NCBI GenBank assembly: GCA_965113315.1
Contig: OZ220368.1
Length of the DNA stretch: 64,000 nucleotides
Direction: 5' to 3' (one strand)
Origin: Podarcis vaucheri
Lineage: Eukaryota
This document shows positions 12,880-54,243 of this stretch, piece after piece. The notes below the pieces were generated by a model, which made no database searches, had not been told where the DNA came from, and saw only the letters and a program-made list of their open reading frames with translations. Numbering within the stretch: the stretch's first letter is position 1; each line of letters starts with the position of its first letter. The translations under genes and the position numbers were made by a program.

Positions 12880-13042
12880 TCAAGCACCTCCTTCAACCGA
12901 GATGCTGTTAAGGCAGGGACAGGCCGTCGGTTCCTTGGCGGGCTACTTGATGACACCTCTTACTGCTACACCCTGGAAGTCTCCTTCTACAGTTACATAG
13001 TTGGAGGGACTACTTCTACAGTCCCGTACACAGAAGAAGCGT
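12880..13042 (+). CDS. AGBL4: AGBL4/CCP6 internal coding exon (163 nt, phase 0-1) containing the catalytic Glu
   Basis: Not in the ORF track; read by hand as SSTSFNRDAVKAGTGRRFLGGLLDDTSYCYTLEVSFYSYIVGGTTSTVPYTEEA plus the first base of Y. YTLE Glu codon is at 12976-12978. Confidence 0.96.
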
Positions 13043-13097
13043 GTATCCTTTGTGATGCTTTAGTTTTTGTTTTCGCTCTACCACGACCTGGGAATCT

Positions 13098-15355: not shown

Positions 15356-15489
15356 CAGGGATAGCCAATGTGATACCCTCCATGTGTTGTTGGACTAGAA
15401 TTCCCATCAGCCCCAGCATCTCCAATTATTAGGAATGATGGGAGTTGTAGTCCAGCGACATCTGGAAAGTACCACAGTGACTACACATG
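15356..15489. mobile_element. Palindromic ~130-bp hAT-type MITE
   Basis: cagggatagccaa...tgttgttggactagaattcccatca...tgatgggagttgtagtccagcgacatctgg. Confidence 0.7.
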
Positions 15490-16843: not shown

Positions 16844-17268
16844 GACTGCTCAGATTAAAGGATAATATAGGTACAAACAAATGCATGTATGGTGCATATT
16901 GCTTAATTTAAAATAAGATTTCTTTCTATTACCTGAATAGAAGTTCTGAGAATGTCTTCTCTAGAGCTGCCATGTTGCTGGTCTTCAAACTGAATGCATT
17001 TTTAACTTCACATCCCACCTTGATGTCGAATCTTATATGTGCGTATGGCACAATGAATGCGCTAAACATGTTGGACCTCATACATTTGCTTCCTCCTTGG
17101 TTGGCCTTGCCTCCACAAAACTGACCTAACATCCACACATCCCTGATCTTTCCTACCCAATTGTGTGGGATAATTATTGCATATTATTGGGCTGGACTTT
17201 ATGGGTTGAATCCAACTAAGTCAGGCTCAGAGCAAACCCACTGAAATAAATGAAAGCAAGTAGTTTAA

Positions 17269-17472
17269 ATTCCTTCCAGTAGCACCTTAGAGACCAACTA
17301 AGTTAGTTATTGGTATGAGCTTTGTTGTGCATGCATAGGTATCTGAAGAAGTGTGTATGCACACGAAAGCTCATACCAATAACTAACTTAGTTGGTCTCT
17401 AAGGTGCTATTGGAAGGAATTTTTTTAGTTTGTTTCGACTACAGCAGACCAACACGCCTACCTACCTGTAAC
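17269..17472 (+). mobile_element. Penelope-like element terminal repeat (pLTR) fragment with inverted 5' duplication (fold-back)
   Basis: 17267-17337 is an inverted copy of about 17352-17422. Sequence matches the 3' end of the GIY-YIG element at 40894-41533. 8-bp TSD TAGTTTAA at 17261-17268 and 17473-17480. Confidence 0.9.
17338..17377 (+). ncRNA. Minimal type I hammerhead ribozyme motif (Penelope-type, dimer-dependent)
   Basis: GGUAU-CUGAAGA-A-GUGUG-UAUG-CACAC-GAA-AGCU-C^AUACC: 5-bp stem I, intact core, stem II and palindromic AGCU helix III. Predicted cleavage after 17372. Confidence 0.8.
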
Positions 17473-17667
17473 TAGTTTAAGTTCATTTCAGTGATTTTAG
17501 TGGTTCTATTCTAACACTGCTGGGTACAGCCCTGTATACACACATGTACCACTTACAGATTATGCAGAGCAAGGCAGAAGCTGACCATGTTCCTGATTTT
17601 ACAGTCTTCTGTTTGAAAGGCTATCGGAAGACAGCCCTCTGTTTGAAGATGTGTCCAGTCTAAGAGT

Positions 17668-17776
17668 AGTATTCAACTAAGACCACTCAGAGATGACTCA
17701 CTGAAATTAATGAGCCTAAGTTAGTCAAGCCTGTTCCCTTCAGTGAGTCTACTCTGAGTTAGACTAGCATTGGATG
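17668..17776. repeat. Short palindromic interspersed element
   Basis: Arms actcagagatgactcactgaa (17685-17705) and ttcagtgagtctactctgagt (17739-17759), 19/21 complementary. Confidence 0.7.
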
Positions 17777-21008: not shown

Positions 21009-21123
21009 ATAAAAAAAATCCCTTCCAGTAGCACCTTAAAGACCAACTAAGTTAGTTCTTGGTATGAGCTTTCGTGTGCATGCACACTTCTTCAGATACA
21101 CTGAAACAGACGTTGCCAGATCC
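21009..21123 (-). mobile_element. Penelope-like solo pLTR fragment
   Basis: Near-identical to about 40936-41047. Flanked by GGTATCATT at 21000-21008 and 21124-21132. Confidence 0.88.
21062..21099 (-). ncRNA. Minimal hammerhead ribozyme motif, intact, antisense to AGBL4
   Basis: Minus strand reads GUAU-CUGAAGA-A-GUGUGCAUGCACAC-GAA-AGCU-C^AUAC. Confidence 0.8.
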
Positions 21124-40893: not shown

Positions 40894-41533
40894 AGTTACA
40901 GATAGGTAGCCGTGTTGGTCTGCCATAGTCAAAATAAAAAAATTCCTTCCAGTAGCACCTTAAAGACCAGCTAAGTTAGTTCTTGGTATGAGCTTTCGTG
41001 TGCATGTACACTTCTTCAAATACACTGAAACAGAAGTTGCCAGATCCTTCTATATAGTGAGAAGGTGGGGAGGGGTATTACTCAGAAGGGTGGTGGGAAT
41101 GGGAGATTGGCAGATAGCTGAGATGAGCCTGTTGACGACTCTTAACGACTGCAATAGGTCTTACAGGAAAAGGCAAGGGGTGAGAAGGTGAAAAATGGCT
41201 TAGTCATGTATAATGAGATAAGAATCCAATGTCTTTGTTCATACCAGGTCTCTCCATGGTTTTAAGTTTGGTAATGAGTTGCAATTCAGCAGCTTCTCTT
41301 TCCAGTCTATTTCTGAAATTCCTTTGTAGTAAAACAGCTACTTTGAGATCTTGTATAGAATGTCCTGGGAGATTGAAGTGTTCTCCTACTGGTTTCTCTG
41401 TTTTGTGATTCTTGATGTCAGATTTATGTCCGTTTATTCTTTGGCGTAAGGTTTGGCCTGTTTGTCCAATATAGAGAGCTGAAGGACACTGTTGGCATTT
41501 GATGGCATACACAATGTTAGACGATGAGCAATT
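40894..41533 (-). mobile_element. Penelope-like element (probably Neptune-type) 3' part: GIY-YIG endonuclease, 3' UTR and pLTR
   Basis: Minus frame CSSSNIVYAIKCQQCPSALYIGQTGQTLRQRINGH...VGEHF...REAAE...GMN, stop at 41204-41206. Followed by the pLTR shared with 17269 and 21009. Confidence 0.93.
40986..41023 (-). ncRNA. Degenerate hammerhead motif (C3U core change, stem II mismatch)
   Basis: Minus strand GUAU-UUGAAGA-A-GUGUACAUGCACAC-GAAAGCUC-AUAC. Position 41019 differs from the other two copies. Confidence 0.65.
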
Positions 41534-42237
41534 ATTGGAGACAATACTTTTTAGGCTCCAATCCTTTACCCAGTTACCAGGGACTAAGACCCACTAAACT
41601 AAACAGGGCTTGTTTCTCAGTAGGCATGTCTAGGAGTCCAGATAGAGGTTGTAGTTATGCTATCCCTTGGAACATAATGTAGAGAAATTAAATTAGATAG
41701 ACTAAACATTTGGGGCTGGCTGTTGCAGTTGTTTTATCTTTCAGGCAGCTGAAATATATCCTGTGAGATAAGTTAAACTGTGTGACAGTGACTGATGCAA
41801 AATTGGCCAGTCATCTTCGTGAATGCGTAGGGATTTGTACTCTGGTTTTTCAGGTCAACCAATCACTTGTGGCTTTTTATATAGGAATACAAGCATTATC
41901 AATTTTCTTTCAAGTCACACTCCCTTGTGGCAGCCATTTTGTGACTGGAGCCCACAACATACTCTCAACATTTCAAATGTGCCCCTGGGCCCAAAAAGGT
42001 TGGCAGTCACTATTCTATCAAAGCTTATTTCTTTAGCCCAACACATTCCCAAACAAATACTGTTTCTTCTGAACTTGTGCTTCTATACATATTTGCCTCG
42101 TGCTACTTACATGCATGAGGCACTGAGGCATAGATCTGAAAGAGTTCTTTCATCTCTTACTATAGATAGCAGGAGCTCAGGGAACTCATACAGTATCTCT
42201 GCTTCTTCCCCCAAAGAGCTTGGAGCTGCTTAAATAT

Positions 42238-42325: not shown

Positions 42326-44557
42326 CACATGTTCTTTCAATGCATGAATGGACAGGGACTGGGATAGTGCCTGCTGATCTCGCTCCTGACCTCCAGTTGT
42401 CCATCAGCAATGTGAATAAGGCAGTGGAAATTCAAATTGCCCATGTCTCTGCTCAGTTGAGAAGTTTGAGGGAGTAAAGGGTGGTGCGAACACACTGGCA
42501 GAGCAAATCTAGCTCTCCAGCCCATGTATTTGCACCATGCTAATCTGCCCACTGCCTCATCTCCTAGCTCTGCCTCTCAGAAAGCAGTCTCTCATGGCCA
42601 ACCAGAGGTTGAGTGACTGGTGGTGCCCCACCAAGCCATCCACTACTGGAAATGATGCATTTGAACATCTGAACTAAAGTGAAACCCCTGTTTCAACATG
42701 CATCTAAAGAGCAACATTTTTTAAAGTGGAAAATTCATGAGCTATTATGTGGTCTGAAGATACTGGCTGTGCCGAAATGACTTCTTAATTTAACTGACCC
42801 AAATAGTGTGGCTTTACTTCACCTAAAGTGGTTTCTGCACTGTTAATTAACTACTTCCAGTTCACATTACTTATATTCTTTTGGATTTTAACCAGTACTG
42901 TTATTTTTATGGCTTTGTAGGGGGGCAGCTTTGGCCTGCCCAGTTACTGTTGTTCAATTAATATTAGCTCTAAGAAGCAACTCGTTTTCTCTGTTTATTT
43001 GGTTGCACCTACCATTATTGCCTTACCTGGTGGGAACCATAAACAGATGTAATTATGCTCCATTAAAATGGTGATTGATAATGGCCTGACTCCACAAGGT
43101 GCATTATGAGACTTCCTTTCCCCCCTGCTAGCTGGGCTTATTAATTGTAATGTATAGCATTTTGCATATACATTAAGTCACAATTAAAATGCACACAAAT
43201 GAAGTTCAGATTAAGTTTAGTCATTGGTGTAAATTCACAAAAGGTAGACTTTGTGGAACTTGGGTGAAGGCTGCAATGCCTGATGTGAAACTAAAACTTA
43301 AGAGATTGCAATTTATCTTCATTCTCACAGAGATAGGCTCTCCAGAATAAAACATAGTTGGAGCCAAAACCTATGGTTTGATCTATCCAAAGATGTTCTT
43401 TACAGTGCTAGCTGAAACCACTAGAACAGAACAGCACTATTTTCTATGGTTAATGACTCTAAGTAAGTGAACAATAAGTAAATAACTATGGATGACTCAG
43501 ACAGCATCCTCCTGACTTGTCTGACTGGCAGATTTTGCACAGAAATACTTTTAGAACTAAAGGATAAACAGGGCAAAACACAGCAGTCTTGATGCTGTAA
43601 GATGTGGCTTTGAGTCCCTAAGTTGGCTAAACAAGTACATTGTGTTGAATCTCATGTTCTGGGAGGTGGGAGATGAGCTACATCAGATACATAATAAATA
43701 GGATGATTGTTGGGCCTTCAGCTTCATCTTGTTGATTACGATCTGACCTTTACATCTGCCTCTGTCTTTCACTACCAGAATTGATAGCACATCCACATAA
43801 AGCACATGACTTTTAATAAATGCCCATTATTTAGGCATTTTATCAAAAATCTGCAACATGATATGAAAATCTCTTTCTATATAAGATGAAAGAAGCAGCT
43901 AATGCACTCCTTTATGCTAAGGATGATTGAGTGGGCAAGAGCGGCCAGAGCTTAATAAAAAGGAGGCAGGGATTCAAACCGTGACTTCGGGAGATTGAGT
44001 CTATAGATCTTCATTAGAGCTTTATGCCTTAAAAAGTGGTAATAGTCCCAAGGATTTACAGAAAACCACTCTGAGCTGCATGTTAACTTTTTTCACCACT
44101 GTTTCTCTGTATAATAGAAATAGAACCATGATTATTGTTGCTGTTGCTGTCTGTTAATAATATAGTATCATCCATGTACTTTGCACTTTACAACCTAGTG
44201 AATGAAAAACCAGTTTCCTGACTGAGGAGCTTATTATCTAAAATTGGAGGGAGGGAAGCAGGGACACCAGTATCAAGGAGACAATGCATTCAGTTGAGCA
44301 ACCAGTATGGTGGAAGAGAGCCATGTCTCTACAGTTTACTTGGATGGGATTGGAGAAGAGCAGAGCAGTCGTGGTGGCAGGGTTGTGGGGGCCCACTGGC
44401 AGTAATGGCAAAGGGCCGTAGTGGAAGTTTCCATGCAGCCCCATTTCCATCTTGATAAGCTATAACAGTGCCAGCATTGGCAAAGTGATTCTGTAGCTCT
44501 GCCCCCACCAGACTGGCTGCCACTGGCAACCAGGCTACAGTTTGGTTAAGCAGAGTG

Positions 44558-54107: not shown

Positions 54108-54243
54108 AAGCCTCTTTCAACCTTGGTTCCCTATATGTTGTTGGACTGCAACTCCCATCACCCTGGAACACTGGTCCTACTAGCTAAGGATGATGGGAGT
54201 TGTATTCCAACAATAGCTGGGGACCCATGGTTGAAAAAGGCTG
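54108..54243. mobile_element. Palindromic ~130-bp hAT-type MITE
   Basis: Termini agcctctttcaacc / ggttgaaaaaggct; inner arms caactcccatca / tgatgggagttg. Confidence 0.75.

Follow-up and report, generated by a model that had tools for sequence, protein, structure and literature searches.

A Sense-Oriented Minimal Hammerhead Motif with an Inverted Arm in a U12-Type Intron of Podarcis vaucheri AGBL4: A Probable Penelope-Like Insertion of Ordinary Shape

Introduction

Why does an intact hammerhead motif lie in sense orientation in an intron, and does the inverted copy of its own sequence beside it have anything to do with its persistence there? The question is raised by a locus at 17261-17480 of a stretch of 64,000 nt from Podarcis vaucheri (assembly GCA_965113315.1, contig OZ220368.1), which is called the window below. 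The initial annotation proposed that the inverted copy acts as a cis lock, letting a sense ribozyme persist in a slowly spliced intron. Our preferred reading, to which we give a probability of about 0.82, is a simpler one: one insertion of a young Penelope-like element (PLE), truncated at the 5' end and accompanied by an inverted copy of the element's end within one target-site duplication, in which the block of the ribozyme by this arm is a likely by-product.

Host Gene and Intron

The window contains coding exons of AGBL4 (CCP6) on the plus strand at 80-273, near its start, and at 12880-13042, the latter being 100% identical to a gecko CCP6. By exon mapping, the gene is on the plus strand and spans C25:51.42-52.15 Mb. 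The exon at 12880-13042 is followed on the plus strand by a U12-type GT-AG intron with a total length of 51,134 nt, which occupies 13043-64000 within the window and has its 3' end past it. Its 5' splice site at 13043 reads GTATCCTTT, in agreement with RTATCCTT, and a branch motif of the TCCTTAAY type near the 3' site, TCCTTAAT with CAG, is found 176 nt past the window end. The exons are joined in frame across the intron, T+AT giving the Tyr of EEAYMKLG, as in protein P0002. Slow splicing is a general property of U12-type introns. The intron had been called a giant U12 intron; the U12 type holds, but the size is giant only in a relative sense, since other gaps between mapped AGBL4 coding exons reach about 128 and 303 kb.

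Structure of the Insertion

A minimal type I hammerhead motif occupies 17338-17377 on the plus strand, sense to AGBL4. Direct reading gives stem I (GGTAT at 17338-17342 with ATACC at 17373-17377), the hammerhead box CTGAAGA (17343-17349), an extra A (17350), a stem II of 5 bp (17351-17364) and GAAA-GC-TC (17365-17372), hence C17 is position 17372, after which the cut is predicted; the palindrome AGCT covers 17368-17371. Thus, the CUGANGA, GAAA and UH boxes, helices I and II, the extra base after A9 and the palindromic positions 15.2-16.2 are all found, and helix III is absent. According to those sections of the work on minimal hammerheads of metazoan PLEs that were used here (Cervera and de la Pena 2014, PMC4209133), such motifs likewise have a helix I of 4-5 bp, an extra base at 9/10.1, a G10.1-C11.1 pair and palindromic 15.2-16.2 positions and are reported in reptiles, while the present motif is distinguished by a helix II of 5 bp with a palindromic loop. 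A covariance scan of the window with Rfam gave 10 matches at E<=1, none of them a hammerhead; this is expected for a motif without helix III, so the evidence for the assignment is direct reading together with the minimal descriptor as published. Two sets of weaker matches were set aside, namely microRNA-family matches at 17284-17405, which are below the gathering score and merely reflect the long hairpin at this place, and a CUGA-like match at 42754, which has no stems and is due to chance.

The arm is an inverted, shorter copy of the element end at 17267-17335 (minus strand), running from the U-tract to a point midway through stem II, and it is complementary to 17354-17422 at 94% over 69 nt (4 mismatches). 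The predicted fold of 17261-17410 is a single long hairpin, in which pairing runs on to 17337 and a 14-nt loop (17338-17351) holds the 5' strand of stem I and CUGAAGA; the stability z is -19.5, and 0 of 200 shuffles were equally stable. Between the arm and the motif there is a junction filler, TAG (17336-17338, plus strand), whose G supplies the fifth pair of stem I. The remaining stub (17378-17473, plus strand) consists of the pLTR end and an AC-rich tail and ends in CTGTAACT. The whole is enclosed by an 8-bp target-site duplication, TAGTTTAA, at 17261-17268 on the left and 17473-17480 on the right, the outer ends of which coincide with the limits of the feature as first noted. Since the duplication lies outside both halves, the arm and the stub were inserted in one event. 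The earlier description of an intact minimal sense hammerhead, with an inverted copy of about 70 nt leaving CUGAAGA in the loop and a junction G that gives a stem I of 5 bp against 4 bp in the other copies of the window, is therefore accurate.

Two further family copies were found in the window, both on the minus strand, without an arm and with a stem I of 4 bp. The copy at 21012-21110 has an intact core and keeps part of the native upstream sequence; the copy at 40894-41570, whose upstream end is approximate, extends into the GIY-YIG end of the element's ORF. With narrower limits, these copies are placed at 21012-21099 and 40894-41023. Both belong to the longer, upstream-bearing kind, and the stub is 91-94% identical to them. 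The remark that the two copies without a fold-back are antisense is correct, but it had passed over the broken core (C3 to U) of the 41-kb copy. In this last copy, a TATA is predicted at 41056 and an initiator A at 41026 (minus strand).

An ATG in loop II opens a reading frame (17357-17386), with the stop at codon 10 both here and in the 21-kb copy, and the ORF of this young subfamily may therefore start outside the hammerhead, unlike that of PAc, the Poseidon_Ac element of Anolis carolinensis.

The Element Family

In longer family copies, an ORF with reverse transcriptase (RVT_1) and GIY-YIG domains lies upstream of the hammerhead end, contiguous with it and on the same strand; in one of them (L217), the matches are over the cut-off with E values of 6.6e-11 and 2.2e-05, respectively. 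The Penelope-like origin named in the initial annotation is thus confirmed by the coding part of the element. Ahead of GIY-YIG, the linker CNKPRCQLC (C-X4-C-X2-C) is present. The CX2-5CxxC linker marks Neptune/Nematis and is missing from Penelope/Poseidon in the account consulted in part (PMC8557442), so the family points, by its sequence, to an endonuclease-bearing (EN+) PLE of the Neptune/Nematis type and not of the Poseidon clade. Many longer copies are 99-100% identical over 377 nt, and the family is, on this sequence evidence, a young Penelope-like element.

The abundance of the family is considerable. Exact copies of the 35-nt hammerhead number 9,116 genome-wide, and an inverted arm ending <=20 nt from the core is found in 1,422 places, compared with 71 in a reversed control. 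A stem I of 5 bp occurs in 1,084 copies and was rejected as a special trait of the present one. Among the 100 matches listed, at least 10 pairs of opposite-strand hammerheads less than 1.3 kb apart were counted by eye, all of them head-to-head. Such opposite-strand pairs, 100-700 bp apart, as well as thousands of dispersed single copies, have already been described in the cited sections on metazoan PLEs (PMC4209133).

To count insertions, 1.86 Mb were used, made up of 729 kb from AGBL4 and of stretches of 730 kb and 400 kb within two alpha-neurexin genes, which lie on opposite strands; the first 30 loci, ranked by their likeness to the 17338-17377 copy, were excluded from all rates. Inverted insertions made up 22 of 37 in these three giant genes. 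In other armed copies, the target duplication likewise encloses the unit, the matches being 8-15 bp long. An inverted, 5'-truncated copy next to the main one is a usual PLE shape, as far as the available parts of two reports on EN+ PLEs and on Penelope of Adineta vaga go (Craig et al. 2021, PMC8557442; PMC3846280), and these reports share with our locus a head-to-head inverted 5'-truncated copy, a duplication of 8-10 bp around the whole unit and a tail on one side only. The present unit differs in being an ORF-less stub of 212 bp. The 5' truncation, adjacent inverted copy, optional tail and duplication around the unit are all observed here, and it may be concluded that the 5'-truncated shape with an inverted arm is the default of this family and that the locus is ordinary, a fresh instance of a known PLE insertion shape.

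Formation of the Insertion

The right half of the unit ends in the AC-rich tail, the left half begins at the U-tract, and each overlaps the duplication by one or two bases. We infer a model of two-strand priming, in which the element endonuclease would nick both target strands 8 nt apart, and cDNA would be primed from both 3' ends on the element's RNA, at the AC-rich tail for one end and at the U-tract for the other. Both cDNAs would proceed to the 5' end of the RNA, probably a few bases upstream of the hammerhead core, and their ends would be joined with a short filler. Stubs would then be near-complete copies, made from both nicks, of the first 140 nt of an RNA started in the pLTR. A self-priming fold-back, as given in the consulted portion of PMC3846280, also fits the junctions.

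The best-studied analogue is PAc (Frangieh et al. 2024, PMC11167929). In the sections of that work considered here, its hammerhead likewise sits within the pLTR, its AC-rich end lies about 100 nt downstream, the tail is optional and the target is AT-rich; its protein nicks and extends both strands, and cDNA starts inside the RNA at an AC-rich site. This both-strand priming is compatible with an inverted insert. The present family is distinguished from PAc by its C-X4-C-X2-C linker.

The 5' ends of the stubs are clustered: 21 of 30 cores keep just 1-6 nt of native upstream sequence. Family-wide, TATATAGA, a predicted TATA motif, is situated 30 nt ahead of an initiator-like TTCAGT, and 7 nt separate the A of the latter from the core downstream. 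The clustered ends suggest that they mark the predicted start site of the element. The upstream piece is kept, with a slightly different search pattern, in 3,855 copies genome-wide.

The junction G was found in 4 of 10 armed cores and in 0 of 20 others (p=0.008), two additional copies chosen for this G being double-hammerhead palindromes that were kept out of the counts. Because it is confined to armed cores, it appears to be a scar of the joining step, for which the ATACC of the motif itself or the cap may have served as template. In loci L012, L016 and L017, at about 1450-1505, the junctions carry repeated short re-copies of the hammerhead 5' end, as if priming had recurred where the RNA ends. 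Together, the clustering of 5' ends and the fillers at junctions offer material for testing how PLEs form head-to-head insertions.

Contigs from all four runs of related organisms connect the insert to both flanks, so the insertion predates their split; no empty insertion site was seen among the matches listed in these organisms' contigs. A search of sequencing runs listed no RNA sample with the insert, a result that carries no information on expression. Such persistence fits neutral fixation as well as function. On the preferred reading, the unit in its host would probably be neutral intronic sequence that folds as a long hairpin.

Effect of the Arm on Hammerhead Folding

Folding predictions leave neither hammerhead stem when the arm is present, stems I and II both having a pair probability of 0.0. 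Without the arm (0.75-0.95 overall), the values are 0.75-0.88 for stem I and about 0.94 for stem II. Prefix folding indicates that the arm pairs with the motif as the latter emerges, and forcing both stems in the presence of the arm costs 26.7 kcal/mol. The suggestion that the arm can block hammerhead folding is thus borne out by prediction. An arm-less version of the 17338-17377 copy folds stems I and II better than the copy in native context does, which shows that this copy would not be self-inhibited.

Stem II (17351-17364) is a 14-nt palindrome family-wide. The best predicted dimer pairs via stem II (-33.2 kcal/mol) and not via helix III, and a dimer of the hammerhead type is estimated by the nearest-neighbour method at -17.7 against -20.2 kcal/mol for two monomers.

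Orientation of Copies in Host Genes

The initial annotation asked whether sense-oriented intronic copies are depleted unless they carry the arm, and counted a lack of association between orientation and fold-back against its reading. Every family copy in the 1.86 Mb was scored, which gave 40 matches; after exclusion of 10 matches with a broken core, 30 intact cores remained in three genes, 15 sense and 15 antisense. The sense:antisense ratio was 6:8 among uncovered cores, 6:4 among armed ones and 3:3 among doubles (Fisher p=0.68), and the share of sense copies among uncovered cores had a 95% interval of 0.18-0.71. Counted per insertion, single hammerhead-bearing insertions were 5 sense and 8 antisense and inverted insertions with one hammerhead 8:8 (p=0.71). 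One antisense copy, C25:51604597, was classed as uncovered because its own duplication assigns the arm to a neighbouring insertion; left in the armed class, it changes p to 1.0. Orientation and arm are thus not associated in these three giant genes, and no such depletion is found there. The pattern of the window itself, one armed sense copy against two antisense copies, is what three draws would be expected to give when about 60% of insertions are inverted.

A lean in the predicted direction is seen in a part of the data. Among cores with zero mismatches, a subset chosen post hoc, uncovered copies were 2:8 and armed copies 4:1 (Fisher p=0.089 two-sided and 0.047 one-sided), and allowing one mismatch gives p=0.17; four of the six uncovered sense cores have 2-4 mismatches. 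Matches listed on C1 beside MAM-domain exons also lean antisense, but only the MAM exons of the gene at the C1 start were located, and these matches were kept out of the orientation counts. In view of the perfect-copy lean, the C1 lean and the three-gene sample, there may be a weak orientation bias at the population level in the direction foreseen by the initial annotation. In the open-access literature, where absence is unproven, no study relating orientation to fold-back for PLE hammerheads in introns was found, and the sections of PMC4209133 considered here contain no test of orientation in host introns. According to a preprint, seen in part, tandem retrozymes are mildly excluded from the introns of Xenopus (10.64898/2026.07.22.740005); no orientation test occurs in the passages used.

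Explanations of a Possible Bias

If a weak bias exists, the ribozyme is not the sole candidate cause, since half of the antisense copies in the zero-mismatch subset are of the longer kind with the upstream piece resembling a TATA and an acceptor. The bias could come from signals unrelated to cleavage: the predicted TATA/initiator region upstream could double as a splice acceptor (CTTCTGTTTCAG), stretches that are rich in U or resemble a branch point occur in the tail, and the fold-back would mask these. Selection against a cryptic acceptor or promoter in upstream-bearing copies is possible. Unpaired upstream-bearing copies with an intact core were 0 sense and 4 antisense (p=0.125), or 0 and 5 when one broken-core copy is added (p=0.0625), short stubs without the upstream piece were 6 sense and 4 antisense, and both antisense copies of the window are of the upstream-bearing kind. 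These numbers, however, are tiny and non-significant, and both the acceptor and the promoter are predicted from sequence, so we regard this explanation as rather improbable, although it fares best among the rivals to a plain insertion. The predicted TATA/initiator bases overlap with a putative acceptor at the 5' end of helix I, and the intron of the D. virilis Penelope reportedly has its splice acceptor at the same place.

The cis lock as a selective filter, where cutting of the pre-mRNA purges unarmed sense copies and armed ones survive, is in our opinion unlikely. Transcription reaches the arm before the motif, and in prediction stem II and the cut site are captured by the arm on emerging, at the cost given above for forcing the stems; the zero-mismatch subset leans as this explanation requires, and the insertion has persisted in the related organisms. 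Neutral DNA, however, would also be expected to persist in close relatives, and the overall counts are null. Moreover, arms are equally common on antisense copies (8:8), the arm carries its 4 mismatches in 69 nt with no compensatory change, and AGBL4 itself contains two zero-mismatch sense hammerheads without a covering arm, C25:51509247, which has no arm, and C25:51973600, which has a short distal arm only; forcing both stems there costs just 0.7 and 1.9 kcal/mol, respectively. The claim that the arm lets a sense copy persist thus finds no support.

A lock is also likely unnecessary, because published lone minimal motifs are inactive. In the part of PMC4209133 consulted, cleavage of a single Schistosoma motif is undetectable, and dimers or multimers cleave little. 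In the corresponding parts of PMC11167929, the PAc hammerhead cleaves only with the element's protein, insertion does not require the motif, and its cut site is the end point of no RNA-seq reads. The lone motif of the AGBL4 intron, by analogy, likely does not cut, these cleavage data being derived from a Schistosoma motif and a Poseidon-clade element rather than from the present Neptune-type family, for which protein-assisted cleavage is an analogy only. According to a second-hand account (PMC2995048, seen in part), splicing still took place in introns that a slow hammerhead had cut, while a fast ribozyme aborted processing.

A broader version is likewise doubtful. In it, PLE hammerheads would cut host pre-mRNA, perhaps where the germ line or brain contains the element's protein, and would do so often enough for introns to lose their intact sense copies without an arm, while the habit of fold-back insertion would disarm most new copies. 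If this were true, a transposon would carry a safety catch in its own insertion geometry, and about 9,000 natural copies would let us read it. The cited papers leave it open whether PLE hammerheads cut in vivo, and the family, with its roughly 9,000 near-identical natural motifs, some armed and some not, permits a direct genome-wide test of this point. The locus itself matters little, more than a thousand others being like it.

Domestication of the locus for the regulation of AGBL4, whether as an intronic ribozyme that can be switched or as a hairpin with an effect on U12 splicing, can practically be dismissed: conserved intronic type I hammerheads do exist in amniote genes (RECK, DTNB and others; PMC6155905), and the hairpin is 4.3 kb from the U12 5' splice site, but those motifs show amniote-wide conservation, full helix III and tertiary loop contacts, whereas the present one is a copy of a young repeat (family copies 99-100% identical) with over a thousand look-alikes, without helix III or such contacts, with no sign of constraint and with a hairpin predicted to be too stable to switch.

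Other Repeats in the Intron

A second family of palindromic short repeats flanks the insertion at 17226-17253 and 17685-17759, and the insertion site of the stub may lie next to or within an older element with inverted repeats. Two hairpin repeats of another family, at 15384-15461 and 54128-54223, give sub-threshold microRNA-family matches and are likely miniature inverted-repeat transposons.
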